This document shows, piece after piece, positions 9,983 to 64,000 of a stretch of 64,000 nucleotides of DNA (positions within the stretch are counted from its first letter, which is position 1; each line of letters begins with the position of its first letter). The notes beneath the pieces are model-generated. The model worked only from the letters and a program-made list of their open reading frames with translations. It was not told where the DNA came from and did not search any database. Origin of the DNA: Escherichia coli (GTDB lineage Bacteria; Pseudomonadota; Gammaproteobacteria; Enterobacterales; Enterobacteriaceae). The stretch lies in the NCBI GenBank assembly GCA_023061495.1, contig GCA_023061495.1_3643.1; one strand, 5' to 3'. The position numbers and the translations under genes are program-made.

Positions 9983-10049
9983 AAATTATCAACACAGGGG
10001 GTTGCAAAACCTCCTTTGGCGTGATAAAATAATCCACATGGGGAATAAG

Positions 10050-36525: not shown

Positions 36526-39500
36526 TGCCAATTGCAATGATTGATAACATCGTTGCTTCTGCAAGATCTTCAAGTTATGACTGGAACGCATCCAAGGCAG
36601 CTCTGGCTGACAGCCTGAACACTGTTACCACCAGAACTCTGGATAAGATTTTCGAGGGCAACAAATCTTACAGAAGTCAGCAAGATAGACAAAAGCTTCT
36701 CAGATCTTCTGCTGCACCTTGCTCTGTAGTATATGGAAAGACACGCACATCTGGATTGCTTGCGTTTTTGGAGCAGGACAGAGACAGAACCCTTCATTGT
36801 GCTATTGTTCTTGCCAATCACCCTCTGGAAGGTATAGAAGATATACTTATCGACGGTAATCCTATTTCCTCGTATGGAGATTTGGTATCGTGGGAGCTGC
36901 ATAACGACAGAAAAACCTCTGATCCTTTCATGGGCACACACTGCCCATCGTGGTCACCGGACATGATAGGTAGAGGGATCAGTTGGCTACGAGTCAGCTT
37001 CAGGTTTGACCCTAACAAGTTTCCTTTTGGGTTGCCAAACGTCACACTCGTCAAGGTTGGTAAAAAATGCNNNNNNNNNNNNNNNNNNNNNNNNNNNNNN
37101 NNNNNNNNNNNNNNNNNNNNNNNNNNNNNNNNNNNNNNNNNNNNNNNNNNNNNNNNNNNNNNNNNNAAAAAAATGCTATGATCCTCGCACCAGTAAAGAG
37201 GTGTATACCAATAACGCTGCCTTGGTGATTCTGGACTATTTAAGAACATACCTTAAATGTCCTGACGAAACCATCAACTGGGAGTCCTTCAAGGAGGCTG
37301 CCAACATATGCGACGAGGCTGTAAGAAACGCAGACGGAACCAGCGAGCGTCGTTACACCATTAATGGTGAGTTTGACATGGATGAAGCACCAGCGAGTAT
37401 TATGGCAGAAATGCTGAAAGCTTGTGGTGCAGATCTTAGCTATGTAGCTGGTAAGTATGGTCTGCTGGTAGGTGCATACTATGGCCCGGCAACAATGACA
37501 CTGAGTGAGGACTGTGTTTGCGGTGAGGTTAAGATCTATCCGGAAGCCTCTTTCGACAAGAGATCGAACACAATAACTGGCAGATTCACTAGTCCAACCA
37601 AAGGGTATTCTGAAACAGATTTTCCATCAGTGTTTGTCCCAGAGTGGATAGAGAAGGATGGAGAAAGAAAGATAATTGATATAGATTATCGTTTTGTTAC
37701 CAGCCCTTATCAAGCTCAGCGTGTTTCTGCAATCTTCTTAAGACGTGCCCGAGCTGGCAGGATTATTGAAGTAACCTGCAATATGCGAGGTTTTAAATTT
37801 AAACCTGGGCGTTACGTTACGATGAATCTTCCAAGTATTGGTATAGTGGGCCAAGAAATGAGGGTTCTTGAATGGGAGTTCACCAAAAAGGGCGGTGTCA
37901 AGGTAAAACTCCGTCAAGATGCTAAAGAGTGGAATGATGCCACAGGGCAACTTCCGGATTCTGGAGATGTGGATATTCCGATATCCCCGTCCGGCGTAGC
38001 TCAACCGCAAAACTTCAGATACTCTGTTCTTCAAGCTGGGGAAGTAACTCATGGTGTTTTGGCTTGGGACAACGTTGGAACTTATGCTCAAAATATTGTG
38101 CAGGTAAGAAAGAACGGAGAGATTATTTGGACAGCACAGACAGTTGAGCAGTTTGTCCGCGTAGAAGGATTGACCAAAGGGTCATACACAGCAACCGTGG
38201 TTGCAACATCTTATAAAGGTGGTGTATCTCCAGAAGCTTACTGCGAGTTTAACATTCAAGCACCTGAAGCTCCTGTTTCTGTAGAAGTTAAGCAGGGATA
38301 CTTTGCTATCACCTTGATTCCGCACAGCAGGGACTTAGCAAGTGTAAGCACCCAGTATGATTTTTGGACATCTGGTATGACAAGGTTGCCGGACACAAGT
38401 GATGCAACCGTTACTTCAAAAGCCACCCGTATGGGTGTTGGTTCAACTTGGACATCTGAAGGTCTGCAGAACGATAAGATTTATTATTGGTATATTCGAA
38501 CCACAAACGCTTTTGGTAGTTCTCAGTTTGTAGAATGCGCTGCACGCTGCTACACCTCTATTGAAGATTTGATGCCTCAGATAGATGCTGAATTTAAAAA
38601 GACAGAAACTTATAAAGAGTTGATGAGCACTTTAGATTCCTCTATCGAGGAGGTTGAAAATCGTGTCACAGAACTTAACAGGTACATGGATGGTAGAGTT
38701 GACGAGGCTTTTGACCGCATGGAAGGTGAGTTCTCTAGAGTAGACAAGCTGTATGCTCAGTTGGGGGATAGGGTTGGAATATTCATCCAAGAAACCCACG
38801 ACAACTTCCAGGACGTTAATGGAACGCTTACCACTCTAGACCAGAAACTGGTAGCCACTCAGAACAAGTTTGCAGATGATCTTTCTAAAGAAAGTGGTAA
38901 GCTGACTTCTCTAATACAGACCACCAACAAAGCTACAACCGATCTGTTAAATCAGAAAACTGAAGCTTTGGACGAGAAGATTGTTTCAACAAGGGGTGAA
39001 TTGGAAGATGCTTTGGCACAGGAAAGCTCTGAGCTGAACTCTCTGATTGTTTCAACCAATAAAACGACTACAGATCTCCTTAATCGGAAAACCGAGGCTT
39101 TAGACAATAAGCTGACAGCAACGAAAGGTGAGTTGACCAACAATCTGCAAAATGAGAGTGCTAAACTATCATCCTTGATTGAGTCAACCAACAAATCCAC
39201 CACTGATCTTCTTAATAAGAAAACAGAGGCGTTGGATGAAAAACTGGTTGCTGCACAGGGCGAGTTGACTGAGCAGATCGGAGATGTTGAAAAAGGCTAT
39301 CTGGCTGGTGATAAGAGCCTAGAGGGCAAGTTGAATACTCAAAGATCTGAGTTGGATGCGAGCATTCTGAGCACTAACCAGGCCACTGTGGACTTGCTGA
39401 ACAGAACTTCTGAGACTCTTGACCAGAAGATTAGCCAGACCAACGCCACAGTGTCCAAAAACTACACCACGCTTGATGGTAAGATAAACACCGCCAAGTC

Positions 39501-47206: not shown

Positions 47207-47665
47207 GTGATGACTAAACCAGTTATCCCTCTTGATATTTGGGCCAATCAGGATGTTGTGCTTGAAAATACGGGAGAATTGAATAAGTCCCAACCAAAAA
47301 AAGAAGAGAGATTGAAAGGTTGGGATATGACACAAAGAGTGGCATGTGAGGTTGTTAACTTTGAACTTCACATGCTTTCTGCGTGNNNNNNNNNNNNNNN
47401 NNNNNNNNNNNNNNNNNNNNNNNNNNNNNNNNNNNNNNNNNNNNNNNNNNNNNNNNNNNNNNNNNNNNNNNNNNNNNNNNNGGGTGTTGAAGATGTAAGG
47501 ATAGCAAACCGCTTCAGAACCACCTACAGAGAATCAAGAGTATACCCTGGGCATGTAATGTGCTCCGGCAATTACGCCTATAAACACCCGTATCAAGGTG
47601 ACTATTGGACTGGTGCTATTCAAAAATTTGTAAACGGTCAATGGATTACCATATCTTATGCTTAA
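47207..47665 (+). CDS. tail fibre paralogue (middle masked by an N block)
   Basis: N-terminus KPVIPLDIWANQDVVLENT...KGWDMTQRVACEVVNFELHML and C-terminus IQKFVNGQWITISYA parallel ORF 45154; true length unknown because of the N run 47386-47481. Confidence 0.5.
   Translation: MMTKPVIPLDIWANQDVVLENTGELNKSQPKKEERLKGWDMTQRVACEVVNFELHMLSAXXXXXXXXXXXXXXXXXXXXXXXXXXXXXXXXXGVEDVRIANRFRTTYRESRVYPGHVMCSGNYAYKHPYQGDYWTGAIQKFVNGQWITISYA
47386..47481. other. block of 96 N (masked or unresolved sequence)
   Basis: Read directly; inside the fibre paralogue. Confidence 1.
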
Positions 47666-52700: not shown

Positions 52701-55480
52701 TCATGACCGTGCTGAGATCAAACATGGATGGGACATCCATGTCTATGCAAGTTCCAGTAACAAACGGGTACAAACGTGTTGTGATGATCATTAAGTGCGA
52801 CTTAATAGGTAAGCAAGTTCTTGCAGAAAACGGAACCTCAACACATTTATTCGAGACTGCTCTGCATTATCAGTTTGCTGATTCACCTTTTGCAGGGGAT
52901 AAGAGAATATCTGATACAGACAATGCTCGATGCAAGAAATTTATGCTTGGTGGTGGATGGTGGTGGTATGAATTTGATTTAACAGACAAATTCACCGACA
53001 CGTCTAAAGTGGTGACAGGGCTTCGTCTAGATCTTGGCGAAAACATGCACAAAAGTGTTTGTGATGGCACCTACGGTGACCCAACAATCTACTTAAAGTA
53101 TGTTTCTTTTGAGCACCCAGAGGATGTCGTTTATGGTCCAAAACTGAGACTGTTTGGCAATTGGATTGCTAAAGACAGGGCAGGTATGGGTAAAAAGGTG
53201 AGAGGGTTCTTAGTTGATGCAGGAACAGAAGACATGTTGGTTAATGCAGTGTGGCCTGAATTACCGGGAACTCAGTGGGACAATTCTGCTAAGTCTATAA
53301 ACTGGTTCAATATCCACAGAGCTATGTGGGCAACTAACTGCTATCTGTGGAAAGAGTTGAATGACGGCGCTTTCGGGTTTACTGGTGGCAGAAGAATGGC
53401 AATCATTTGCTGGACAACGCTGCAGAGATGTTATGACCATGACTACGAGATTGGAGGCAGGGCATGGAAAAATATAAGGGATAGAATCATAACTAACTTT
53501 GCAGATCCTAACGGTGGCGGGGCGTATGGTTTCGACTGCAGCAGGCTTATCCATTTGAACGGATCTTCGGCCTATAAGAAAGAAGGCTACTCTGGGGCCA
53601 TGATTGAATGGGGCTTGGTAAAAGATTCTCGTGTGTTGATGGGTCAGCAACTTGCTGCTGCAATAGGACCGAACGCAGTACAATCTGTTAAACCAGCATG
53701 GTTCGATATCCCATTATGGTCCTCTGGAACACCAGGAACTGCTGCAATCAACCCTACCACTGGGGATCTGGAAATCTCCTGGGAGGACCTGAAGCAGGTC
53801 GGTGGCTGGGATAAGGCAGGGTACCAGGTGCAATGGTGGAGATCTGACGGATCATTGGCGGCTGATGAGTTTGTTAAGGACAATTTCTACACCATGTCCT
53901 CTGCAAAAGCACAGCAATTGTTTGGTCAGGCCACTCCGTCAACGATCACCATGTCCATGTGCTGTAAAGACACCAGGACTGGAGCTCTGGGGCCAAGGGT
54001 TGCTAAAGTTTTCTCAGGTATTAAATGGAATCTCCCTGTTCAAAGTGTTTCATGGAAGCAAATAGGTGATAACAAGCTGCTGGTTACCCCAGCTTGTCAG
54101 TTCAGCGCAACTCTTAACGTTGATCCTGCTGTTGCGGCAAACTCAGCTAAAGCTTCTGACTTCTCTGTGTCTAACACTGCTATGGCAGATGTGAGGAAGA
54201 TTGACACGCTGAACGCCAGAATTACCTGTAAAAACACTTATGGCACATTCCAGATCATCAACAACTTCACAGATGCTGATTCTAAGGTAGTGAGGACAGC
54301 AAGCCAAACTCTGAGTTTAGGAACTCTGGCCTACGCGGCCCTGATCACTGAACAGTCGGCAACACTCCAAGGAGGCGGTGTAGGCAAGTCCATTGCAACA
54401 CCTGTGTGGAAGCCAAATGAGTGGGTTGTGTTTGATTTAACTGTGGACTTCTCCAGCGATAATAACTGGACATGGGTAAGGAATTNNNNNNNNNNNNNNN
54501 NNNNNNNNNNNNNNNNNNNNNNNNNNNNNNNNNNNNNNNNNNNNNNNNNNNNNNNNNNNNNNNNNNNNNNNNNNNNNNNNNNNTTCTTGTCACAACTGAT
54601 GGGTGGCCCAAACTCAGTTAGTGATAGCCAAGACTCCACTGACCCGAGTGTGTTTCAGGTGGGTAAAACTCACCCAGAAACTGGGGCACCGTTGCCTGAC
54701 AGGAAGTATGCTTTGGTTTGCATCTCTTACGGAAAAGCAGATGTAACCTTCTCAGGGACACACACATATAACGGCACTTACAACTTCTCTAAAAAGTACA
54801 GCCTCAAGGCAGGTAACATTGTAGACGAGGTTGGTGCGTTGTATAATCCAGGAAACGGGATAGGGATTGTAGGTGGTAAACTGCAGATGCAGGAACCTTC
54901 TATTACCCCTTCCAATGTGCCAGGAATCAGAAAGACTTGGGAAAGTAGTAATACCAACATTGCAACAGTGGATGCTACCACAGGGCTGGTAACATTTAAA
55001 GCTACTGGGAATGTCACTATAAAGTTTGTAGTTACAGATGATGCAGGGCGCAAAACGTCTTCAACATCTTTTACTGTCAAACAGATGGCACCACAGTGGA
55101 GAATGTGGATAGGTACAGCAACAAACGGGGCATATCCTAATCCGGCAGGGACTTCTGGTATGAAGACTTTCTCTACAAGCAAGCCGATGGAGTACGGCAG
55201 CGGTCCTAAGGTAGGGCAGATGGTGTACTTTGGTGCGTATATTCCTGAAATTATAGGGCTTCCGAGAAGTCAGCTTCAGTTGCTGTTTGGGGCTGGTGTT
55301 GACGATCTTGCCACTTTCGGGTATAGAGACAACATCGATGCTGCAAGGAGTTCAGGATGGGTAGGGTTCAGAATGGAGTCTGGAAAGGAAGGCAGGATTC
55401 TAGGGACAGCCTCTATAGGTGTTATGTTCCCTGGTGACCAGCAGTATCGTCTAGAAGCCTACGCAACCTTTTCTCGTTAA
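49745..55480 (+). CDS. giant structural/adhesin-like protein (about 1900 aa; spans an N block)
   Basis: Single ORF ending at a strong bidirectional terminator; Gly/Asn/Thr/Trp-rich; the N run 54486-54583 lies inside, so continuity across it is assumed. Confidence 0.5.
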   Translation: MLPIPLLKLGRHFLDKRGGIKELAVLSYPIDNSDGTSTTVPYVNSLAILFDDGQLNITGYNRFGECRTGDLDTINYPNEAAWNVDHVWRADRAFVIRTFDNQFFYIGCTAGLIGSDAAGGNDVCVREWTPLPEQIVKGLHLDTHPERLIEVMGGINNTVWVIAEAEGTGILNLYGSGNNTYGSLHVDKNQHATPVKIGETSENPETGPWKNPSINCEVHDNSVIFGGPRGFWIAGYDFLRNNSRNDLVWPPVQITRNDLRGIPADEEWKGFMCGPNGAIIATQRMHKPNDQQLVNVFYGQDVWGDDTWRSLNITYTHEVIMARGYGTSGIFFNNGTKQYRGFSRNLCNDIGAQSANNSPRANFIHYQALATAKYVEQRLPVSWTESVYFQGIHREGFLGTFTVVNGKLWWSGIPRGSFAGSNNLFGGRLNSQGFTEVPENWYKNVPVDSWGVDDIFDVNGVSSVSNIYIGDTVKMKLKPQPEGATFIIDKIELVNAAGTVVTDANYQFSANWNHGGANEVVVTQYNRNVNRRGLYSVKITYHDKHGTGRTHTTRTLNWNTIVPAYPSDGKWHTVGRNKQFHVNDTVYFGLNAAQPAVEGDTSYMVRLHRMDAGSVTYDVTQEIYNQRRNTYDNLVQTQALWEFNPNGRGGKMLQVNEQNGTSLTVHEHPNPWPDPGKPNSGARTLKIVSHDVGYFGIRWEATVRYADGTTNNIGITLGGTSEDNSLKIAYTPRGISIDNMDVVRNGYGDVNIKVTLGEHLGGERIIMYAFDHDPRTNGTYADQAWSYLISAPEPNTKEFYYGMKRNVCKKTGTHDWIAICVKDERTAWNEPVNRWFVGIPTRSDKYVEEYIVCMGGTNLNMCWNEDANNKYSDYDYMRDYSCNQWFNQPGYADRQARVNPAIFTDTQVFLTKQANEVQTFKNKYDPNKWFYNCYGAFFWGPGELPNGGSCFEAATYASDRFMGQVKKYKIIPGPETLGNAVDPYIVMTVLRSNMDGTSMSMQVPVTNGYKRVVMIIKCDLIGKQVLAENGTSTHLFETALHYQFADSPFAGDKRISDTDNARCKKFMLGGGWWWYEFDLTDKFTDTSKVVTGLRLDLGENMHKSVCDGTYGDPTIYLKYVSFEHPEDVVYGPKLRLFGNWIAKDRAGMGKKVRGFLVDAGTEDMLVNAVWPELPGTQWDNSAKSINWFNIHRAMWATNCYLWKELNDGAFGFTGGRRMAIICWTTLQRCYDHDYEIGGRAWKNIRDRIITNFADPNGGGAYGFDCSRLIHLNGSSAYKKEGYSGAMIEWGLVKDSRVLMGQQLAAAIGPNAVQSVKPAWFDIPLWSSGTPGTAAINPTTGDLEISWEDLKQVGGWDKAGYQVQWWRSDGSLAADEFVKDNFYTMSSAKAQQLFGQATPSTITMSMCCKDTRTGALGPRVAKVFSGIKWNLPVQSVSWKQIGDNKLLVTPACQFSATLNVDPAVAANSAKASDFSVSNTAMADVRKIDTLNARITCKNTYGTFQIINNFTDADSKVVRTASQTLSLGTLAYAALITEQSATLQGGGVGKSIATPVWKPNEWVVFDLTVDFSSDNNWTWVRNXXXXXXXXXXXXXXXXXXXXXXXXXXXXXXXXXFLSQLMGGPNSVSDSQDSTDPSVFQVGKTHPETGAPLPDRKYALVCISYGKADVTFSGTHTYNGTYNFSKKYSLKAGNIVDEVGALYNPGNGIGIVGGKLQMQEPSITPSNVPGIRKTWESSNTNIATVDATTGLVTFKATGNVTIKFVVTDDAGRKTSSTSFTVKQMAPQWRMWIGTATNGAYPNPAGTSGMKTFSTSKPMEYGSGPKVGQMVYFGAYIPEIIGLPRSQLQLLFGAGVDDLATFGYRDNIDAARSSGWVGFRMESGKEGRILGTASIGVMFPGDQQYRLEAYATFSR
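54486..54583. other. block of 98 N (masked or unresolved sequence)
   Basis: Read directly; inside the giant ORF. Confidence 1.
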
Positions 55481-55492
55481 CAAGGGGGTAAA

Positions 55493-55526
55493 TAAAAAAG
55501 GGGCCAAACGGCCCCTTTCTTTTTAT
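55493..55526. terminator. bidirectional rho-independent terminator between convergent modules
   Basis: A-run, ggggcc-aaac-ggcccc stem, T-run; sits between the plus-strand structural block and the minus-strand operon. Confidence 0.85.
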
Positions 55527-55528
55527 AG

Positions 55529-55729
55529 TTAGTAATACTCCCAACATGCCCCATCTTCAGACGGCTTGACGCGCTTACCTTTATGGTCAACATAGGTATA
55601 GCCACAACCTTCACAAATAACAGGTGCTGCATAGCCTTCCTTCCACTGATCCTCAGTGATCAGACCTTCCAAATCTTTGCAGTCAAAGCCAAACAACTCT
55701 TCAGAGCAATCTTTACAAAAATCAGCCAT
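55529..55729 (-). CDS. small Zn-ribbon protein
   Basis: 66 aa with CKDC...CEGCGYTY cysteine pairs; last gene of the minus-strand operon. Confidence 0.4.
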   Translation of the reverse strand: MADFCKDCSEELFGFDCKDLEGLITEDQWKEGYAAPVICEGCGYTYVDHKGKRVKPSEDGACWEYY

Positions 55730-55732
55730 TTC

Positions 55733-56215
55733 TCAGTCCTCGCATTTAACAAATTTTTCTACAGATCCGCCAAGCACAGCTTGTTGCTTGATGGCACTTC
55801 CTTCATCATGGTGGATAGATTTATGCTCCGTTCCACCAAACTTCCCTGTGTGGAAGGTGTGCACCCAAATCTCTTTGGGAAGGGATTTATTCTCTTCTCC
55901 CACCAATTCCCACATACCCCACAAGTGATCTGTGATATCTCTGATGAAATATCCCTCACCGAGGTTTGTATTCACACTATAGGCCGATTCGTGATCTCCG
56001 TGAGTATAACGGAAGGCAGTGTACTCTTTCCCCGGTGTGAAGTGGGTATCCATCAGTATAGCTGTTAGAGAATTAGGGTCTCGAAAGCCCAAGAACTTTA
56101 GTTTAACAACTTCTACGTTTACACTTGCAAGATTATCCATGACAATCTCCTCTGTTGGGTTGGTGAGATAATCATATATAAATCTGGTGTTAGTGTCAAG
56201 CTTAATTTTAAGCAA
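55733..56215 (-). CDS. hypothetical protein with two H-x-T segments (speculative 2H-phosphoesterase-like)
   Basis: 160 aa; DTHFT and VHTFHTG separated by about 60 aa; assignment is a guess from motif shape only. Confidence 0.25.
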   Translation of the reverse strand: MLKIKLDTNTRFIYDYLTNPTEEIVMDNLASVNVEVVKLKFLGFRDPNSLTAILMDTHFTPGKEYTAFRYTHGDHESAYSVNTNLGEGYFIRDITDHLWGMWELVGEENKSLPKEIWVHTFHTGKFGGTEHKSIHHDEGSAIKQQAVLGGSVEKFVKCED

Positions 56216-56303
56216 TTTGAGAGGGTATTTTATTCAGAAGGGTAATCGCACATAGGTAGGAAGTTTATGAAGGCACAGGCCTCGTTTGAGGCCTTAAAAT
56301 CGA

Positions 56304-56684
56304 TTATGACACTTTGACGTAGCGCTCTGACAAAGCTGGAAAGCCAACAGCAGTACCTATGCTGCCGTATGCTATCCACCATTGAAGTTCATCGTGACAC
56401 CATTTTCCGATCAGAAAGGTGCTGGGGTAGCGAGTCAGTATTTTGGCATAAGCTTTAGGGTCTGCATCCTCTGGGATAATGATGCTTGGAGCATCTTTGT
56501 TATGACCACAGCAGCAGTTTATAGTTTTCAATCCTGCCGCCCATAGACTCATGATAGGCTTAGCCATGCACTTATCAAGGCACACACGTTTTTTGCAGTC
56601 ACGGAGCTTTTTAGGCACATCAACGATAACATTTGGATGCTTGGCACCTTTAACTTTCCAATTATAGGATTTACACTTGCACAT
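56304..56684 (-). CDS. Cys-rich hypothetical protein
   Basis: 126 aa with CKCKSY, CLDKC and CCCGH cysteine clusters. Confidence 0.35.
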   Translation of the reverse strand: MCKCKSYNWKVKGAKHPNVIVDVPKKLRDCKKRVCLDKCMAKPIMSLWAAGLKTINCCCGHNKDAPSIIIPEDADPKAYAKILTRYPSTFLIGKWCHDELQWWIAYGSIGTAVGFPALSERYVKVS

Positions 56685-56902
56685 TTAATCAGTCTCCATT
56701 TAGAAATCCACACTATTACGTTTTTGAGGCATACCTTACTTAAAGTCTTTGTCACCTATTACGATTGCACGAATCCACTCATTGTGATGCTTAATGGCGG
56801 TAAGGTGTAACATAATGTAGTGATTGTCATTACCAAACACGGCGCGATAAGCTTTAGCAGCACCATGGTATAACTTCCACATCAAGTAATGGTATCTTCG
56901 TT

Positions 56903-57382
56903 TCATGGCTCTTTCTCCGGTTCAGGATCTGGGTAATCTTCAATAATAAAGGGCCATCCGTTACGCTTAGCGTCAGACTTATACTCAATTTCCTTCATTG
57001 CAAACTCTAACTGATTCTTAGCCGGAATGCAAGCTGGAGAATCATCAACCCAGATGTCTGGGTAGATATCAAACTGCGCCAGATAAGCGGCCTTCTGAAC
57101 GCCTCCAGTATAAAACACTCCAACATCGAGCTCCTTGCGCCAGTATTCGATGTCCACGTTGTCTTGAGTGATGAATCGGAAAGTCACAAGATAGACTGTC
57201 CACCCCTCCTTCTTCAGGTCCTTAATAAGGCGGGAGAAGATGAAAGGGCTCGCATTAAACGTTCCATCAAAGTCAATAGCAATGATATGCGTGCAGTGAC
57301 GAGTCTCATATGGATTGCTCGTGGTGAGATTGCTGTAGTTAAAAGGTACTTCTTCTCCGCAGTAGCTGTAGTCCATATTCAC
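56903..57382 (-). CDS. HAD-superfamily phosphatase/nucleotidase-like protein
   Basis: HAD motif I IAIDFDGTF near the N-terminus; 159 aa. Confidence 0.5.
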   Translation of the reverse strand: MNMDYSYCGEEVPFNYSNLTTSNPYETRHCTHIIAIDFDGTFNASPFIFSRLIKDLKKEGWTVYLVTFRFITQDNVDIEYWRKELDVGVFYTGGVQKAAYLAQFDIYPDIWVDDSPACIPAKNQLEFAMKEIEYKSDAKRNGWPFIIEDYPDPEPEKEP

Positions 57383-57654
57383 ACCTTCTCGTTGATAAAT
57401 TTACGGGCGGTTTGGTGAGTTGTTTCTGCTGTCTTCAGAATGATATTAATTTTATTGTCAAGATCATTCATCTCAGCAGTTAATTCAGGAATCTCTCCAG
57501 CATGCATGGTGAAATCATACATAGACATACCCAGGATCTCATTGATTCGGCGGTTGCATTCTGCAGCACGTTGGTTCATTTTCCAAGCTAACACTAGAGC
57601 CTCTTGCGTAGCCTCTAGTGCAAAGTCTAATACGTCAGCTTCTTCTTTCGTCAT
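57379..57654 (-). CDS. hypothetical small helical protein
   Basis: 91-aa ORF stop-start coupled with neighbours. Confidence 0.35.
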   Translation of the reverse strand: MTKEEADVLDFALEATQEALVLAWKMNQRAAECNRRINEILGMSMYDFTMHAGEIPELTAEMNDLDNKINIILKTAETTHQTARKFINEKV

Positions 57655-57710
57655 CTCAGTCTCTCTTGTTGTATTGTTGATAGGTGTATGAATGCTTTAT
57701 AACTCACCTT

Positions 57711-58277
57711 TTATTCAAACTGCAATAGCAAATCCACCACCGCGCTAGGTCTGTCAACAAACTCACCGGGCCCACATGCCCACAGAGGGTATCCGTCTAC
57801 ATACCGCCAAATCCAACCTGCAGTGTGGAGTTCTAGCAGGGCAGTACCGTCCTTACTGTCAACCACTCTTTCCCACAGTGTTGGGCAGCGAAGCTTGAGG
57901 ATCGGATCCCCTCCCTTATACCCATCCATGTAGATACCCATTGCAAAGTTCAGCATCATCTTTTTGTGCACTGACCTCTTACTGAGGGTGCTCATCACTT
58001 CCTCTTTGTGGATGTTTGTAAGCTTCTCCTTGGCTACCTGCAGATCGTTGCAGCCATTGTTCAGAAGATCTTCCAGACACTTGACCCGAAGGTCGTGAAT
58101 ATCTTTGTCGTGCACCGTTGGTACAGGGTCGTAGCGATATAGCACTGTTGATACAAGGTTGCTCGGGTGTGGGTCTGACAGCAACCCATAACCCCAATAC
58201 TCCTCTGTATCTGAAAGGACAAGACACCCAATGTCTCTGTCAAGCTTTCCTGTGTTGTAAGCCACATTGACCGCCAT
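57711..58277 (-). CDS. hypothetical protein
   Basis: 188-aa ORF in the operon; no motif recognised. Confidence 0.4.
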   Translation of the reverse strand: MAVNVAYNTGKLDRDIGCLVLSDTEEYWGYGLLSDPHPSNLVSTVLYRYDPVPTVHDKDIHDLRVKCLEDLLNNGCNDLQVAKEKLTNIHKEEVMSTLSKRSVHKKMMLNFAMGIYMDGYKGGDPILKLRCPTLWERVVDSKDGTALLELHTAGWIWRYVDGYPLWACGPGEFVDRPSAVVDLLLQFE

Positions 58278-58279
58278 AA

Positions 58280-58525
58280 TTATAGCTCCACTAGCAAAGT
58301 GCTCTCAAAATGCCTCTCATGCAGACCACTATAAGGAACCACTTCCACAACACCGTCGCGGATGTATGGAGTCATCATGGTGACATAATCACCGAACGGG
58401 TTGGCATTATCACTAACCACGACCACATGCTGCCCCTCCTTGGCAGAGTGCCAGATAGATCTGCACTTCATCATGTGTTCGAGAGCGCCAGGTAAAATCT
58501 TGTTACGTTCTTTACGGGTCTTCAT
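58280..58525 (-). CDS. hypothetical small protein
   Basis: 81-aa ORF overlapping its neighbours by a few nt. Confidence 0.35.
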   Translation of the reverse strand: MKTRKERNKILPGALEHMMKCRSIWHSAKEGQHVVVVSDNANPFGDYVTMMTPYIRDGVVEVVPYSGLHERHFESTLLVEL

Positions 58526-58971
58526 AACAGATATAGCTCCTTATGAAAGTGGGCTTTCAATTTCTCACCGAGAAACTTCTTGATACCTTCCTCTAAAGTG
58601 TTTTCGATGTAGTCCAGCTTAACTGCTTCGATAGACATATCATAGATCGCCAGCTCTAAGCTGTCAAGTCCCATCATAGCATGAACCATAAGATTTTCAT
58701 CTTCAGATACATTCAGGGGACTTCCTATAACATCTGGAGGCAGAATAGTTTCCCAATTATTCTGGGCGGTAGATCTCCCGCCATCCACCTTACGTCTCAG
58801 CTCGAATGTATTCTTAGTGTAGAACACTTCATAAGAAACGATACGACTGTCACTCTCATAATAGACGAAGTTCAAGTAGGAGCCCAGCCGTAGTCGGCAA
58901 ACTTCTACCCCAAACCATTGTTTCTTATAAGAATTCAGGCTAATGCTGTCGCATTCACGTTTGCTCAACAC
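58522..58971 (-). CDS. hypothetical protein
   Basis: 149-aa ORF in the operon. Confidence 0.35.
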   Translation of the reverse strand: MLSKRECDSISLNSYKKQWFGVEVCRLRLGSYLNFVYYESDSRIVSYEVFYTKNTFELRRKVDGGRSTAQNNWETILPPDVIGSPLNVSEDENLMVHAMMGLDSLELAIYDMSIEAVKLDYIENTLEEGIKKFLGEKLKAHFHKELYLL

Positions 58972-58987
58972 GGCTCTCTCCTTCTTG

Positions 58988-59221
58988 TTAATCTTCGTAA
59001 ATAATGATTTCTGCTTTAGGTTTTCGTGCTTTCAGGTCCAGCTCTATCCAGTGCACCATCGCTGTTTCAAGAAAAACAGCCTGGATGCATCCGTCTTCAG
59101 CGTGCCCTACCAGCATAACAAGATCTTCACATTCATCATCTGCATCACGGACATACAAGATCTCTCCAGATTCAAAGTCTTTCACAACCTGATTGCTGGA
59201 TAATTTACGAATTTTTGCCAT
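58988..59221 (-). CDS. small protein, divergent member of a tandem paralogue family
   Basis: 77 aa; shares the general pattern (hydrophobic core GE-LYV ... V-L ... Gxx, acidic tail) with the three 87-aa genes upstream. Confidence 0.4.
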   Translation of the reverse strand: MAKIRKLSSNQVVKDFESGEILYVRDADDECEDLVMLVGHAEDGCIQAVFLETAMVHWIELDLKARKPKAEIIIYED

Positions 59222-59222
59222 A

Positions 59223-59486
59223 TCAGAAACCCTCTAAAAAGCTCTTGTAGAAAATAATCTCAGTATCCACACCAGTCACGATCTTGTCGTTCCTGATTTC
59301 ATCTGTAAGATAGGTGTCAAAACGCAGCACCTGTGTGGTATTGTCACACATCCACTCGGCTGTTACCATGGCAAAAATCTTAGCATCTTCATTATCTGGT
59401 GTAAATGTTACCACCTCACCGCATTTAAACTTTTCGATAGGTTGCGTGTTAGCTTTTGGTTCTGCAATGGTGATTTTCGTGGTCAT
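59223..59486 (-). CDS. small protein, tandem paralogue 3 of 4
   Basis: 87 aa; CGEVVTF...DTEIIF aligns with PGTVVMF/CGTVVSC...ITILGE of its neighbours; start adjoins the previous stop. Confidence 0.45.
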   Translation of the reverse strand: MTTKITIAEPKANTQPIEKFKCGEVVTFTPDNEDAKIFAMVTAEWMCDNTTQVLRFDTYLTDEIRNDKIVTGVDTEIIFYKSFLEGF

Positions 59487-59749
59487 TATTCTCCTCCTTC
59501 TTTTGAATAGCTTGTCTCTCCAAGGATGGTAATTTTGGTGTCAAGCTCTGTAACTTTCATGTTTGGTGGCAGATCGTACAACTCATTATTTTCTAAATCG
59601 AACCCCCATACACAATGTTCCCCTGTTTTGACAATCATAACTATGTTTTGAATGCCGTCTCCGTCACAACTTACCACGGTCCCACATGGAAAACTGTCTG
59701 CACGCTTTTTGTTCTTCACTTTAGAATTGAATACAATGCTAGTAGCCAT
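59486..59749 (-). CDS. small protein, tandem paralogue 2 of 4
   Basis: 87 aa; MATSIVFNSKVKNKK...CGTVVS...FDLENNELYDLP...VTELD..ITILGE parallels paralogue 1. Confidence 0.45.
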   Translation of the reverse strand: MATSIVFNSKVKNKKRADSFPCGTVVSCDGDGIQNIVMIVKTGEHCVWGFDLENNELYDLPPNMKVTELDTKITILGETSYSKEGGE

Positions 59750-60012
59750 TATTGTTCCTCCACCATAACTTCGCCAAGAATTTCTATGCAGGCATCCATT
59801 TCTGTAACAACCAAGGTGTGAGGTAGTTCTGCAAACACCTTTCTGAACAGGTCAAATACCCCAACATATATGTTTGCAGGATGTGATCTCACAACAAGTG
59901 CTGTATTCACATCTCCAAGTTCATCAACAAACATCACCACAGTACCTGGAGCTACTGAAGACAGATACTTCTTAGTTTTACGGTTGGATGCAAATTTTAA
60001 CTCTGTTGCCAT
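59749..60012 (-). CDS. small protein, tandem paralogue 1 of 4
   Basis: 87 aa; MATELKFASNRKTKK...PGTVVMF...FDLFRKVFAELP...VTEMD..IEILGE. Confidence 0.45.
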   Translation of the reverse strand: MATELKFASNRKTKKYLSSVAPGTVVMFVDELGDVNTALVVRSHPANIYVGVFDLFRKVFAELPHTLVVTEMDACIEILGEVMVEEQ

Positions 60013-60027
60013 AAATAATCTCCTCCT

Positions 60028-61488
60028 TTATTTAACGTACTCGATTAATTCCACAGTTTTCCCAAAGCTCGGGATATAATTTTTATTATACCCTTCAGTG
60101 AGAACCCATAAAGTATCGTACTTTTTCCACTTGTTGTCAACAGCCTTTTGTTCAAAGTTATGCTCAAAGTAGAGATCGGTAAGGACGATGACATCTTTTG
60201 CATTCGGTATGTTAGCATCCAGATACTCGAACACGCAGGCGGCTGTTGTGCCCCATGTTGAGTGGACCTCATAGTTGATCATCTCATCGATGTTACCGCG
60301 AGTGTATACTTTAACCTCTCCAACCTCGGTTGACCAACAGAACATCGTAACCTTAAACTCTTTATACAAATTGCACAACCCGGTGATCTCATTAAACATT
60401 TTCTTTAAAGTTCTTTGTGAGATCGATCCAGAAACGTCTAAAGCCACTACAATATCTATAGTGTTTTCCGGATTACGACCAGGAACAATAACGTGTTGAT
60501 TCTTGTTTATAGCTCCAACTTTTCGCATTGTGGTGGTCAAAGACCCAGATCGGCGACCAGGTTTTCTGTAGGTTAACTCAGCCTTTCTTTTAGATAACAT
60601 ACGTTGCTTAATAATATCTATATAATTGATTACAGGCTTGCCTCTGTTTTTGACAAACTCGCGCACCGCCTCGGGGCAACGACCTCCTGAAGCTTGCATT
60701 GCTGCTTCCAACATGTCACCAGAATCCTGCATGGCCTGATCTTTATCAGATTGACTGATTACTGGTTGCGGCTGATCATACCCCATAGCCTTTCCAAGAT
60801 CATCACTAGTGCCACCGTTCCCGCTCATGTGATCATCGGTTTGTCGTTTATCTCCTTGGGAGTTCTCACCTTTACCGTTCTTACTTTTACCGCCATTCTG
60901 ATCTCTTTGTTTATCAAGAACTGCATAGACGTTCTCAGCAATCCATCCATGAAACTTCATGTCGCAGTAGCAATTAGCTAAGAAGCCAAAAGGCTTACCT
61001 TTTACGAACTCAGTGCTTTTCCCCTTCGGGAAGAAAACACAAGGAGGCTTGCTAAAGTCAACCACAAGACCTGTGTTGATAACGTGATCACAAGCAATAT
61101 TGAACAGTTCCGGCTCAAAGCTTTTACCACGGACCAGATGATCACAGATAATATGCCCCACCTCATGTGACAGAAGAAATGCCACCTCTTTCACAGATTT
61201 TGGGGAATAGAAAACCTCAGCCATCTCAAACTGCTTGTCAGTCAGAGATGCTTTAAGAATGGTTTTACGCTCATCTGCCAACCCCATAATGAACTCAGGG
61301 CTGTAGTAGATGCGTTTATGGTCTGTTGCCATAGTGGAGCACCATGTGTGGTTTTCTACGAACTGCAACCCTGACAACAGTGTGCCATAAAACGGCAGCT
61401 TTTCAAGAAGATACATGCGAGCGGCCTGCAGCATTCGCAAGGCATCATCTTTTTGTGCGGTAATGATTTCTGAACTTCTGCTATCCAT
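60028..61488 (-). CDS. VWA-domain protein with N-terminal HExxH metallopeptidase-like domain
   Basis: HEVGHIICDH zinc-peptidase motif in the N-terminal half; Gly/Ser/Asp-rich linker; C-terminal VWA-like region with MIDAS-type DVSGS (IVVALDVSGSIS). Start moved to ATG 61488 (MDSRSS) because the track start 61509 is a TTG inside a hairpin. Confidence 0.6.
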   Translation of the reverse strand: MDSRSSEIITAQKDDALRMLQAARMYLLEKLPFYGTLLSGLQFVENHTWCSTMATDHKRIYYSPEFIMGLADERKTILKASLTDKQFEMAEVFYSPKSVKEVAFLLSHEVGHIICDHLVRGKSFEPELFNIACDHVINTGLVVDFSKPPCVFFPKGKSTEFVKGKPFGFLANCYCDMKFHGWIAENVYAVLDKQRDQNGGKSKNGKGENSQGDKRQTDDHMSGNGGTSDDLGKAMGYDQPQPVISQSDKDQAMQDSGDMLEAAMQASGGRCPEAVREFVKNRGKPVINYIDIIKQRMLSKRKAELTYRKPGRRSGSLTTTMRKVGAINKNQHVIVPGRNPENTIDIVVALDVSGSISQRTLKKMFNEITGLCNLYKEFKVTMFCWSTEVGEVKVYTRGNIDEMINYEVHSTWGTTAACVFEYLDANIPNAKDVIVLTDLYFEHNFEQKAVDNKWKKYDTLWVLTEGYNKNYIPSFGKTVELIEYVK

Positions 61489-61498
61489 TAAAACTCCA

Positions 61499-61520
61499 GA
61501 AGGGGCCAATGGCCCCTGTC
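61499..61520 (-). terminator. intercistronic hairpin (possible attenuator/partial terminator)
   Basis: ggggcc-aat-ggcccc palindrome between the HNH-like gene stop and the VWA gene RBS; weak U-run on the minus-strand transcript. Confidence 0.35.
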
Positions 61521-61521
61521 A

Positions 61522-62565
61522 TTATTTAACGTGCTTGAAAATACCAGCCAACTCGGTCATTGTCATGCGGGTGGTCTTCATAAGGTCTGTCATAGCTTTT
61601 TCCATGATTGGAGATACCACCATGAAGTTACCTTTGGTGAAACCTTTGTTCCAGTCGGTAACTAATAGTGGTTTAAGTCCGGCCCCGAGACGCTCACCAG
61701 TTAAAGCACAACATTTTCGAATGTATGTGCTCTTAAATTGGCTGAACGACAGATCAACTTTCATGCCTACATCGTAGAACGTTTGACAATAGAAGGTGTA
61801 AGCTTTGGCAATCTCAACATCATCAGGTAGTGCAGGAACCTCTTCTGTAAGCCCCTCTTCGACCTCCTGAGTCTCTTTTTCCTCTTCATGTACCTGTTGC
61901 GTCATTTCTTCAATCTCTTCTGCGATAGGTTCGTTTACAATGTCAGAAATGTGCTTCTTGGGTGCACGATAAGTAACTTTAGACATAGGTAGCATATCTT
62001 CCTCCTCTTCTTCGTCAAAGAGTGCTAGTTTATCCTCTTCCGTTCCATATTGCAAGATGAAATCTTCAAAAGTATAATCACCTTTCAATTTCTCCATACG
62101 CTCTTCGCTCAGGTGGAGCATCATCTGCTGGACAATTTTTCGATCAGTTTTGTCTTTAATCAAGACTGCGGTCTTTTTATCTACCAGACAGTCCTTCAGG
62201 GAGTTGCACCTTAACCCAACCACACAACAGTTATCAATTGCGTAAGGACCTTCATCATCTATCCGCTCTAAGGATGGGTAGAAAGGATTCCCCAACCCGT
62301 TTTCATCTGTGTGCATGTCAAAAGGTATAAGGGTATAGTCGCACACCCCCTCTCCTAAAAGTTTTTTACCAAATAGGAGGTATTCTTCCCATGACAGGTT
62401 GAACTCTATATCTCGTTTCCGTGCATTATTTTGTTTGCGTCTGTATTTTTTTAGCAGGCGCTCTAATTCTTCTGGTGTATAATATTTTTCAAGATTCATA
62501 AGTTGTCTCTTGTGCTTTGTAGGTGAAGAAATCTTATCAAGTGCCTCAACAGATGTCAACCTCAA
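61522..62565 (-). CDS. HNH/His-Me-finger-like protein with acidic linker
   Basis: N-terminal CDYT...FDMHTDENG...PSLERIDDEGPYAIDNCCVVGLRCNSLK resembles HNH-type nuclease cores; long poly-Glu linker; first gene of the minus-strand operon. Confidence 0.35.
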   Translation of the reverse strand: MRLTSVEALDKISSPTKHKRQLMNLEKYYTPEELERLLKKYRRKQNNARKRDIEFNLSWEEYLLFGKKLLGEGVCDYTLIPFDMHTDENGLGNPFYPSLERIDDEGPYAIDNCCVVGLRCNSLKDCLVDKKTAVLIKDKTDRKIVQQMMLHLSEERMEKLKGDYTFEDFILQYGTEEDKLALFDEEEEEDMLPMSKVTYRAPKKHISDIVNEPIAEEIEEMTQQVHEEEKETQEVEEGLTEEVPALPDDVEIAKAYTFYCQTFYDVGMKVDLSFSQFKSTYIRKCCALTGERLGAGLKPLLVTDWNKGFTKGNFMVVSPIMEKAMTDLMKTTRMTMTELAGIFKHVK

Positions 62566-62572
62566 AAACGTG

Positions 62573-62601
62573 TTGACTTTACTCTAAATCCACGATATAG
62601 T
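62573..62601 (+). promoter_or_regulatory. sigma70-like promoter (TTGACT-N17-TATAGT) in the divergent intergenic region
   Basis: Read directly; the -10 overlaps track start 62600, supporting ATG 62642 as the true start. Confidence 0.45.
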
Positions 62602-62641
62602 GCACCCATTCGAAAGAAAACGAACACAGGATCACTTAATC

Positions 62642-63541
62642 ATGTCAAATCTTAACAGCTTTAGCACTCGGTGGAAACAAGATATCACAACCAATCTCTC
62701 AGCAGGAGATATCCTTTCTGCAATTTACGAGGCCTTGGATGATAAAGCTACTTCAAAATCGGTCTGTACCAACCCGCTAATTCCTATAGTAATGAAGGTG
62801 ATTGAACGTAGGTTGGTATCCGGATCCGATAAGTGGACATATCTTGATAATGGGGGACACACTTACTCCAACGGATATGTTGATATAAAAGTAGAATACG
62901 CAGTATCATACCGACGGAGCGGTTCTGTAACTTTCAACTTCTCTGGAGGTTTCCGATCTCTGGCAACTTCACCTTTTGTTTCCTCAGAGCAAAAGTTTGA
63001 ACTTCCGTTCCTTTGGATGATGGCTAACGCGACAGGCAAAACCCCTGTAAGCATTCGCGTAAAATACAACTACAACGGATCTAGTAAGATCTATGCCGAG
63101 AGTGTATCAGCAAGTTTTTATTTTGTGATGGGGGATGGAATCCTCAAACATATAAAGATGTGCGATATGCATGATGTTATAAATGAAGTGACTGATAAGA
63201 ATGTCCTAGTGAAAGACCTCAATAATTTTTATACACCTGGAGACTATTACGTCAACCGCCCACTGTGCATCTTTAATGCCGCACACCCTTTAGGTGAGTA
63301 TTTGATCGCCAATAGCGATATTGCCAATAATCGCTTCGAGGTAGCAAGAGTACAGAATGAGGTGTTGACATCTTGCAAGAGCGGTGATAAGTTTACCGAA
63401 GAAGAGATGGGTGTTTTAGAGATGATGGGATATAAGTGTAGCCTTTGGGTAGATGAGGTGTTTAATGACGGCATCTATGGACAGGATATTTACCCACTAA
63501 AGAAGTATACTGATTCCAGTTTAATTTACGCGGAGATTTGA
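62642..63541 (+). CDS. hypothetical protein
   Basis: ORF 62600-63541 trimmed to ATG 62642 (MSNLNS); no motif recognised. Confidence 0.45.
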   Translation: MSNLNSFSTRWKQDITTNLSAGDILSAIYEALDDKATSKSVCTNPLIPIVMKVIERRLVSGSDKWTYLDNGGHTYSNGYVDIKVEYAVSYRRSGSVTFNFSGGFRSLATSPFVSSEQKFELPFLWMMANATGKTPVSIRVKYNYNGSSKIYAESVSASFYFVMGDGILKHIKMCDMHDVINEVTDKNVLVKDLNNFYTPGDYYVNRPLCIFNAAHPLGEYLIANSDIANNRFEVARVQNEVLTSCKSGDKFTEEEMGVLEMMGYKCSLWVDEVFNDGIYGQDIYPLKKYTDSSLIYAEI

Positions 63542-63818
63542 CTATGATGAAGTCATGTGGTAGTGTATATTATGTTGGTGAGAATGTTCAGGCAGATAGT
63601 GTGTGGAAATCACCACCGATGATGCCTTCTTGAGCGGGTTATGTTTCCCCAATCCTGGGGACATTCTCCCTCACCCTGGAGATTTTGTTGTCAACAAGAC
63701 AGACGGTTATACCGTGTGCCTGATGGTTGAAAAAATCTTTTTAGACACTAGACACAATCACCGTCTTGTGCTAAAATTTCAAGAATGTAAAATGACAGTT
63801 GCCTAAGGAGGCCTATCA

Positions 63819-64000
63819 ATGTCTAAAGTTACTTATCGTGCAGCTATTTACTGCAATGAGCAACCAATCAATAGTGATGGTCACTGCTTTTTTAAAGAAA
63901 ATCAGTTGGGCTGTATTGCCCTCCCTGATGAAGGGGAAGGTTATATGATTGCATTGACAGGGTTTGAGCCTGAAGCCTTGGAAGCCAATCTGGACTACAT
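63819..64000 (+). CDS. hypothetical protein (5' part; continues beyond window)
   Basis: AAGGAGG RBS at 63805-63811, ATG 63819, open to the window end (MSKVTYRAAIYCNEQPINSDGHCFF). Confidence 0.35.
   Translation, partial: MSKVTYRAAIYCNEQPINSDGHCFFKENQLGCIALPDEGEGYMIALTGFEPEALEANLDY

Follow-up and report, generated by a model that had tools for sequence, protein, structure and literature searches.

The locus in an rV5-like coliphage

The window, i.e. the whole stretch of 64,000 nucleotides that was analysed, belongs to Vequintavirus, the rV5-like coliphages. Megablast gave 96.8% identity to phage ECP26 along with 119 related records, and comparison of the window with ECP26 revealed that the two are collinear up to base 63998. 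The genes and signals of the region are as follows.

55497 to 55518, no strand assigned: terminator-like hairpin at the point of convergence of the vWA-containing minus-strand unit and the plus-strand tail-fibre gene
60028 to 61488, minus strand: gene for a 486-aa metallopeptidase-vWA protein starting at ATG 61488, of the rV5 gp12 / N4 gp25 family (DUF2201_N and DUF2201)
60424 to 60438, minus strand: DVSGS, aa 351-355 of the translation, first MIDAS motif (DxSxS) of the vWA domain
61153 to 61167, minus strand: HEVGH, aa 108-112 of the translation, predicted zinc-binding/catalytic motif of the peptidase domain
61501 to 61517, minus strand: GC-rich hairpin with a 7-bp stem and a 3-nt loop, lying after the stop codon of the neighbour and ahead of the ribosome-binding site of the vWA gene
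61509, minus strand: alternative TTG start of the vWA gene (the ORF 60028-61509 then codes for 493 aa)
61522 to 62499, minus strand: gene for a 325-aa Srd-like protein (rV5 gp11) with its likely start at ATG 62499, as annotated in relatives
61522 to 62565, minus strand: the same neighbour as a mechanical ORF, extending to TTG 62565
62531 to 62559, minus strand: sigma70-like promoter TTGACA-17-TAAGAT with an extended-10 TG, before the Srd-like/vWA unit (consensus match only)
62573 to 62601, plus strand: sigma70-like promoter TTGACT-17-TATAGT of the divergent unit (consensus match only)

The start at ATG 61488 has GGAG 8 nt upstream and is the one annotated in relatives. The resulting protein shares 97.5-99.4% identity with its annotated counterparts in EmilHeitz and ECP26 and matches PHROG 1314 at 5.5e-123. 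A preliminary description of the locus had proposed that a zincin-like HEVGH motif is combined here with a C-terminal vWA/MIDAS domain carrying DVSGS, and this was borne out by Pfam, by the conservation of the motifs and, for the vWA domain, by fold matches. DUF2201_N (PF13203) scored 101.1 bits against a cut-off of 23.2 and is followed by the vWA-like DUF2201 (PF09967) with 43.7 bits against 26.4, so that both lie above their gathering scores. In an alignment of 26 family sequences H108, H112, D134 and N138 are invariant, and E109 and H117 are kept in at least 90%; E109 is found in 25 of the 26, down to 23% identity, HExxH being replaced by HAVCH in one distant member, P0027. The MIDAS residues D351, S353, S355, T414 and D438 are all invariant, T414 and D438 completing the site begun by DVSGS. 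Thus, to judge from the aligned residues, both the HExxH and the MIDAS sites are intact.

HEVGH falls inside a predicted helix (99-118) and D134 inside another (126-144), and there is a weak Pfam M48 match (0.025) at the HExxH. Two fold searches matched the modelled C-terminal domain to vWA folds, including the vWA domains of NorD, BchD and Midasin. These searches, run with a two-domain model, were both dominated by the vWA domain and returned vWA matches only; the zincin fold of the N-terminal domain is putative. No PDB relative of the protein was detected by sequence, either with the single sequence or with a profile, the profile search returning integrin MIDAS strands alone at E of at least 0.016.

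Back-to-back sigma70-like promoters, predicted from consensus, give the region the look of an early unit. The PVP-SE1 record has a promoter annotated at the place equivalent to 62531-62559. EmilHeitz and ECP26 keep the hairpin of 61501-61517 in the corresponding position, and its core, GGGGCC-N3/4-GGCCCC, occurs only twice in the window against 0.01 expected. Tandem paralogues had been proposed downstream of the vWA gene. This holds for two of the three small 87-aa ORFs, which are 38% identical (E 1.6e-11), and not for the third, which has no detectable relation to them.

The Srd-like upstream neighbour

The neighbour was correctly described earlier as a protein with a poly-Glu linker and no Walker A motif: the linker is one-third Asp/Glu with an EEEEED run, and it joins two putative, degenerate HNH-like modules. 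The description of its N-terminus as HNH-like stands loosely, in that the fold matches are HNH-like, but the protein is a homologue of T4 Srd and has no catalytic His. It matches PHROG 3118 and, more weakly, PHROG 4592 (4e-13), PHROG 1400 'Srd' (9e-11) and endonuclease VII PHROGs. By BLASTP its N-terminal module matches T4 Srd at 8e-8 and its C-terminal module matches the N-terminal module of Srd at 5e-4; rV5 gp11 was earlier reported as an Srd homologue by PSI-BLAST (Kropinski et al. 2013). Since the two halves gave no direct BLASTP match to each other, the putative internal duplication rests only on both of them aligning to the same T4 Srd module.

Foldseek returned weak matches, none with E below 0.03, and most of the 36 listed, the best included, are HNH domains; PacI (probability 1.0, TM 0.51), the Cas9 HNH domain and Hpy99I are among those listed. 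In the alignment of the neighbour family an invariant ERI triad (SLERID in the neighbour) stands instead of the catalytic D-H, and the protein has no CxxC pairs and no Pfam match, HNH included. No PDB relative was found by sequence. The homologous N-terminal module of T4 Srd has SLERFD in place of SLERID and is likewise without the HNH catalytic His. Unlike T4 Srd, the neighbour has the module twice, the second copy being more degenerate, together with the acidic linker, and the binding and stimulation of host RNase E are known for T4 Srd alone; T4 Srd is presented as a host-takeover protein with this activity in the part of PMC7430671 that cites Qi et al. 2015. In phiTE and A7_1 an HNH_3 homing endonuclease gene sits between the ATPase and vWA genes considered below. 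Derivation of the neighbour from this endonuclease was considered and rejected, as the two show no similarity (E 4.0).

The MoxR-type ATPase and its linkage to the vWA gene

It had been claimed that the vWA-peptidase lacks an adjacent AAA+ partner. Taken literally, this holds within the 64-kb window: the ATPase of relatives gave no match there by tblastn, the upstream neighbour carries no Walker A, and in window ORFs of at least 150 aa the only two Walker A motifs lie near positions 993 and 6854. However, the partner lies just beyond the window end in the closest relatives. In ECP26, EmilHeitz and rV5 a 394-aa 'MoxR ATPase' is annotated 3.66 kb from the vWA gene on the opposite strand, and the 394-aa ATPase is also found in PVP-SE1 (annotated MoxR) and K54_rec4. 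Its position corresponds to about 65.1-66.3 kb in window-equivalent coordinates, i.e. about 1.13 kb outside the window; in the relatives the divergent unit runs through six small genes before it reaches the ATPase gene. The vWA gene is thus ordinary and not an orphan. For the present genome itself the ATPase gene is inferred from these relatives, at 93-97% identity.

The rV5-type ATPase has no Pfam domain at gathering threshold, and its assignment was made by transitive homology and profile search. Pfam AAA_3, AAA_5 and bpMoxR are matched by homologues at 35% identity, and the family profile matches Midasin AAA domains at 3e-20 and Clp at 5e-8. The conserved residues are G37/K40 of Walker A, D108/E109 of Walker B, N146, R164 and R220, sensor 1 and the arginines being kept across the family alongside Walker A and B. 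By this homology it belongs to the MoxR/AAA_3/AAA_5 clade, and its catalytic motifs are intact.

Linkage of the two genes was compared in 21 other loci from unrelated lineages. Sixteen of these 21, including N4 (gp24/gp25), jumbo, Bacillus and Aeromonas phages and one bacterial contig, have a co-directional ATPase homologue immediately before the vWA gene. Among the loci examined, the two genes are on opposite strands only in Vequintavirus, Seunavirus and one Klebsiella relative, and it is only in these split loci that the Srd-like gene precedes the vWA gene; in all other lineages that gene is absent or distant. The number of phage records per host genus is nearly equal for the ATPase and the vWA-peptidase, showing that their phyletic distributions match. 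We read the split, divergent order as a lineage-specific rearrangement, which placed the Srd-like gene ahead of the vWA gene, and not as loss of the partner. In many public records the vWA-peptidase is mislabelled as 'HNH endonuclease' or 'anti-sigma factor'.

Existing annotations of rV5-type genomes already cover the vWA gene, its domains and the MoxR partner, and the pair has been described in N4-like and jumbo phages. N4 gp24 and gp25 (Schitoviridae) are pairwise homologous to the rV5-type proteins: gp24 aligns to the ATPase at 1e-28 and gp25 matches the 486-aa protein at 8e-21 (BLASTP), with the same DUF2201_N (3e-87) and DUF2201 (1e-46) domains. In both N4 and the rV5-type genome rIIA/rIIB lie downstream of the ATPase. 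The N4 genes are adjacent and co-directional, whereas the rV5-type genes are split; the rV5-type vWA protein also exceeds its N4 counterpart by about 100 aa, having an insert that follows the helix pair of the HExxH and a low-complexity Gly/Lys/Asp loop at aa 199-228.

The same MoxR/vWA-metallopeptidase architecture and family occur in group 2.2 jumbo phages (Iyer et al. 2021, Viruses 13:63), where the MoxR AAA+/vWA pair was described as chaperone and cochaperone with an N-terminal zincin peptidase (PMC7824862). 121Q, Munch, RaK2 and relatives were matched by both the ATPase and the vWA queries. In these phages the pair is adjacent and among structural genes, whereas the rV5-type pair is split and in an early region. 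In rV5 itself gp4 (MoxR ATPase), gp11 (Srd homologue) and gp12 (conserved hypothetical, DUF2201_N) are orthologous, with the gene order unchanged; the rV5 table gives gp12 as 441 aa with an overlapping 81-aa gp13, whereas the window ORF is an intact 486 aa (Kropinski et al. 2013). The logic of an AAA+ ring with a MIDAS-bearing vWA adaptor is shared with RavA-ViaA, NorQ-NorD, CbbQ-CbbO, BchI-BchD and Midasin. The vWA partners of these cellular systems, whose clients are metalloenzymes or ribosome assembly factors, are without the zincin peptidase domain.

Possible functions of the pair

Our data indicate, with a probability that we put at roughly 0.8, that the gene supplies the vWA-metallopeptidase member of a two-gene system conserved in phages, of the N4 gp24/gp25 type, and would work with the MoxR ATPase. 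The ATPase ring would use ATP to remodel a client protein, the MIDAS site of the vWA domain would hold this client through an acidic residue, and the fused zincin domain could then cut the client so held; remodelling, holding and cutting would therefore make up an adaptor-coupled, ATP-dependent processing machine. Such a machine may act before the late phase and would not be a component of the virion, its client most likely being a phage-encoded protein or complex. N4 gp24/gp25 belong to the core gene set of N4-like phages and are transcribed as middle genes (PMC4193335, PMC7650795, PMC2784036), and in the rV5 paper no mass-spectrometry virion evidence is listed for gp4, gp11 or gp12 (Kropinski et al. 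2013). The literature searched on phage DUF2201, MoxR and vWA-metallopeptidase proteins yielded annotation and comparative papers, with no functional study, biochemical data, substrate or phenotype.

It is possible, if on the whole unlikely, that the clients of the same pair are virion proteins, the pair serving as an assembly chaperone and in the proteolytic processing of structural proteins. This was proposed for group 2.2 jumbo phages (PMC7824862), the archaeal virus ATV has an analogous MoxR/vWA system for tail development, and in the window the vWA unit abuts the tail-fibre module. Structural genes flank the pair in 121Q and Munch, and its placement among structural genes in Rak2-like jumbo phages fits the published assembly proposal better than it fits a role before the late phase. 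Against this, the N4 genes are middle and not late transcripts, and in N4-like, Aeromonas and rV5-like phages and in environmental contigs the pair is near DNA-metabolism and rIIA/rIIB genes. Moreover the virions of the carriers are of very different types (podoviruses, myoviruses, jumbo phages), so that a shared structural client is not obvious. The absence of reports of these genes in rV5 virions is weak evidence, because a chaperone need not be packaged.

A more doubtful reading is that the pair is directed at the host, as a protease driven by ATP that would clear a host protein early in infection, for takeover or counter-defence. The consensus matches to early-type promoters and the Srd homologue adjoining the vWA gene in the Vequintavirus/Seunavirus clade are consistent with it, as is a bacterial homologue pair that lies in an island with SNF2 helicase, Ser/Thr kinase, PP2C, vWA and JAB genes. 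However, no match to a defence or anti-defence family was found, and the pair shows core, syntenic conservation in phages whose hosts differ widely, from Proteobacteria to Bacillus, which favours a client internal to the phage. In a still less probable form of host-directed proteolysis, the clade-specific move of the vWA gene behind the Srd-like gene and its early promoter could couple the peptidase to the host target of the Srd-like protein, such as RNase E or a sigma factor.

A scaffold role without catalysis for the HExxH domain, the protein then being only a vWA adaptor for the ATPase, is improbable: HAVCH in P0027 would suit such a role, and other MoxR-vWA systems commonly have inactive peptidase domains joined to their vWA components (PMC7159879), but the near-universal retention of E109 among invariant H108, H112, D134 and N138 argues against it. 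Hardly tenable is the earlier proposal of an uncharacterised host-takeover or anti-defence module, in which an orphan vWA-peptidase would act with its HNH-like neighbour and the small downstream genes: the window has no AAA+ gene, co-transcription of the vWA gene with an Srd-like gene is predicted from an early-type promoter, and T4 Srd is itself a takeover protein, but a MoxR-class partner is nearby in all close relatives, the neighbour accompanies the vWA gene in one clade only, PADLOC on the vWA protein, the neighbour and five nearby ORFs gave no match except one that was non-significant (an NCBIfam search gave nothing useful), and an accessory role in anti-defence sits poorly with a pair that is core in N4-like phages.

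The interpretation that we prefer is the phage two-gene system of the N4 type. The pair of ATPase and vWA-peptidase occurs in hundreds of virulent phages of several families, belongs to the core set of N4-like phages and is core or near-core also in rV5-like, Rak2-like and other large virulent phages. To this the present survey adds that the pair can be split without loss of either member, and that the split coincides with the arrival of the Srd-like gene before the vWA gene.

Phage identity and the putative metallopeptidase-vWA protein

Both the vWA gene and the phage family that carries it are already known; the gene order here separates the gene from its known partner. Megablast of window 59000-63600 matched 119 phage records (80% or more of the region covered in 117), with Escherichia phage vB_EcoM-ECP26 as the top match (96.8%). 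Every annotated match falls in Vequintavirus (rV5-like coliphages, ~137 kb), and window 54586-63998 is collinear with ECP26 (96.8%) as far as the window end. Sixteen records are titled 'Campylobacter phage' (MG065644, MG065646, MG065662, MG065682 and others) with C. jejuni as the stated host, an odd one for Vequintavirus; over the examined genes they share 90-99% identity with E. coli rV5-like phages. Four runs of 94-98 N each (26661-26754, 37071-37166, 47386-47481 and 54486-54583, the last breaking a 1911-aa tail-fibre ORF) look like masked stretches of the supplied sequence and not biology.

Features of the vWA gene
60028-61509 (-): ORF from a TTG start, 493 aa
60028-61488 (-): ORF from ATG 61488, 486 aa, with GGAG 8 nt upstream; the start annotated in relatives
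61153-61167 (-): HEVGH, from translation
60424-60438 (-): DVSGS, from translation

The preliminary description proposed an HExxH peptidase domain joined to a vWA/MIDAS domain, which is borne out by the translated motifs, Pfam scores and conserved residues. With cut-offs of 23.2 and 26.4, respectively, the protein scored 101.1 bits for DUF2201_N ("putative metallopeptidase domain") and 43.7 bits for DUF2201 ("VWA-like domain"). Across 26 aligned family members, with identity down to 23%, H108, H112, D134, N138 and the full MIDAS set (D351, S353, S355, T414, D438) are invariant, and E109 and H117 are kept in at least 90% of members. The residues show both predicted active sites to be intact. The AlphaFold2 model (pLDDT 80) places HExxH within helix 99-118 and D134 within helix 126-144. 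Both fold searches with the model were dominated by the vWA domain, the N-terminal zincin fold being putative, and no solved structure related by sequence was found. Public labels for the protein vary ('HNH endonuclease', which covers N4 gp25 in NC_008720 and PHROG 1314, 'anti-sigma factor', 'homing endonuclease', 'Zn-dependent hydrolase'); the sequence gives no support to the first three. The rV5 counterpart, gp12, is given as 441 aa overlapping an 81-aa gp13 that spans the vWA C-terminus of the window ORF (PMC3606486, Table S3), a layout that suggests either an error in the reference (frameshift or sequencing) or a gene genuinely truncated in rV5.

The MoxR ATPase and its linkage to the vWA gene

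It had been proposed that this vWA-peptidase has no AAA partner beside it. No AAA+ gene is present in the 64-kb window and none lies beside the vWA gene there, as described. However, relatives encode a 394-aa protein annotated as "MoxR ATPase" on the strand opposite to the vWA gene. In EmilHeitz and ECP26 a distance of 3,663-3,664 bp separates it from the start codon of the vWA gene; it comes last in a divergent unit of six small genes, and after it stand a hydrolase gene, rIIA and rIIB. Projected through the ECP26-collinear alignment, its start maps ~1.13 kb past base 64000. A MoxR gene just outside the window, named beforehand as the finding that would refute the proposal, is placed there by the alignment to ECP26, and the orphan reading was rejected. 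In the first annotation of rV5, gene 4 is already named "MoxR - ATPase" and gene 12 is entered as a conserved hypothetical protein with PF13203 (PMC3606486, Table S3).

The rV5-type ATPase alone falls below every Pfam threshold, and its PDB matches are confined to the Walker A regions of Clp proteins. Among homologues at ~35% identity (E ~1e-45), the Pfam matches are AAA_3 (MoxR family) and AAA_5, in some also bpMoxR. A profile built from 26 members of the family matched the Midasin AAA ring at 3e-20, the next class being at 5e-8, and Walker A G37 and K40, Walker B D108 and E109, N146, R164 and R220 are conserved. By these sequence criteria the proposed partner is a competent MoxR-class ATPase.

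The decisive evidence for partnership is the gene order across 21 loci with a vWA homologue, in 16 of which the vWA gene is immediately preceded by a co-directional gene for an ATPase homologue. This order is found in a bacterial contig, a 578-kb jumbo-phage contig, Munch, 121Q, N4, ECBP1, PS28, Vibrio phi 1, Aeromonas 2L372D, Bacillus Goe21 and three environmental contigs whose ATPases carry AAA_3; also counted are the Vequintavirinae phiTE and A7_1, with an HNH_3 homing endonuclease gene between the two (phiTE 9472-9984, Pfam 1e-24; A7_1 8480-8974, 3e-23). In Pseudomonas phage Ettore the two are co-directional, with the ATPase 3 kb upstream. Genes on opposite strands, with 3.5-4.4 kb between them, are confined to Vequintavirus, Seunavirus PVP-SE1 and Klebsiella phage K54_rec4. 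The HNH_3 genes are wedged exactly at the ATPase/vWA junction, which therefore seems to be a recurrent point of insertion or rearrangement. Phage records matched per host genus by the vWA protein and the ATPase are almost equal (Escherichia 214 vs 216; Pseudomonas 104 vs 108; Pectobacterium 26 vs 26; Cronobacter and Achromobacter 17 vs 17), and the two proteins align with N4 gp25 (8e-21) and gp24 (1e-28), respectively. The linkage is thus shown to be conserved.

Genes for thymidylate synthase, dCTP deaminase and rIIA/rIIB are recurrently linked to the pair in unrelated phages (N4 and loci L002, L009, L010, L013 and L016-L018); in rV5-like genomes the place beside rIIA/rIIB is kept by the ATPase, not the vWA gene. 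The island that holds the bacterial pair (GCA_045600625.1) also encodes an AAA protein, a large SNF2/DEAD helicase, a Ser/Thr kinase, a PP2C phosphatase, a second vWA and a JAB-like protein, a context that resembles conflict systems.

The Srd-like neighbour and the surrounding unit

Features around the vWA gene
61522-62565 (-): upstream neighbour, mechanical ORF; 325 aa from ATG 62499, the likeliest start and the one used in annotated relatives
62531-62559 (-): sigma70-like promoter, 10/12 consensus positions, in the 142-bp gap between the two units
62573-62601 (+): sigma70-like promoter, 10/12, same gap, back to back with the former
61501-61517: hairpin between the Srd-like stop and the vWA ribosome-binding site, conserved there in EmilHeitz and ECP26
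59749-60012, 59486-59749, 59223-59486: three 87-aa ORFs in a row, downstream of the vWA gene
56903-57382 (-): 159-aa ORF, DFDGT motif typical of HAD phosphatases, no Pfam match
56304-56684 (-): 126-aa ORF, Cys-rich, no CxxC pairs
55529-55729 (-): 66-aa ORF, two CxxC pairs, zinc-ribbon candidate
55497-55518: terminator-like hairpin where the minus-strand unit ends, at a convergent junction

The neighbour's strong PHROG match is PHROG 3118; weaker ones are to PHROGs for endonuclease VII, Srd and "decoy of sigma70". By BLASTP its N-terminal (8e-8) and C-terminal (5e-4) modules align to the same T4 Srd module, which suggests a degenerate duplication, the halves giving no direct match to each other. 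Kropinski et al. considered the rV5 counterpart, gp11, a probable Srd homologue, and T4 Srd stimulates host RNase E according to PMC7430671, citing Qi et al. 2015. The neighbour had also been called HNH-like. Its model (pLDDT 76; disordered acidic linker 166-222) has no significant match among known structures; the weak matches are nearly all HNH domains (among them PacI, probability 1.0, TM 0.51). No Pfam family matched, the invariant motif is SLERID where HNH has D-H, and CxxC pairs are absent; if an HNH derivative, it is predicted not to be a nuclease. Its public labels are anti-sigma factor, anti-termination protein, HNH endonuclease and type II restriction endonuclease. The gene is found only in Vequintavirinae relatives and Aeromonas Plateaulakevirus, and of the 21 loci only the four with the split arrangement have it just ahead of the vWA gene, either adjoining or separated by one small gene.

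The back-to-back promoters suggest that the two divergent units could be co-expressed early in infection by host RNA polymerase. The GGGGCC-N3/4-GGCCCC hairpin occurs twice in 64 kb (0.01 expected), and the copy at 61501-61517 may attenuate or stabilise the transcript. Tandem paralogy downstream holds for the first two 87-aa ORFs (38% identity, both PHROG 10698) but not for the third, which has a different PHROG and no similarity. One gene of the PVP-SE1 locus bears the annotation of a putative phosphatase resembling T4-type Tk.4.

Possible function of the pair

The ATPase/vWA-peptidase pair is already known: N4 gp24 (AAA+ ATPase) and gp25 (vWFA) are middle transcripts and belong to the 14-gene core of N4-like phages (PMC4193335, PMC7650795, PMC2784036). 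No experimental study of the pair was found in the literature searched. By analogy with MoxR-vWA systems (PMC7159879), the ATPase ring would remodel a client protein gripped by the MIDAS site via an acidic residue, and the fused putative zincin domain would then cleave it. The pair may serve virion assembly, proposed with proteolytic processing for jumbo phages by Iyer et al. (PMC7824862), and it does sit among structural genes in Rak2-like phages; gp4, gp11 and gp12 are not listed in rV5 virion mass spectrometry. A host protein may also be the target. Since the pair is a conserved core across phages with unlike virions and is syntenic with DNA-metabolism and rII genes, we lean towards a pre-late, phage-internal client.
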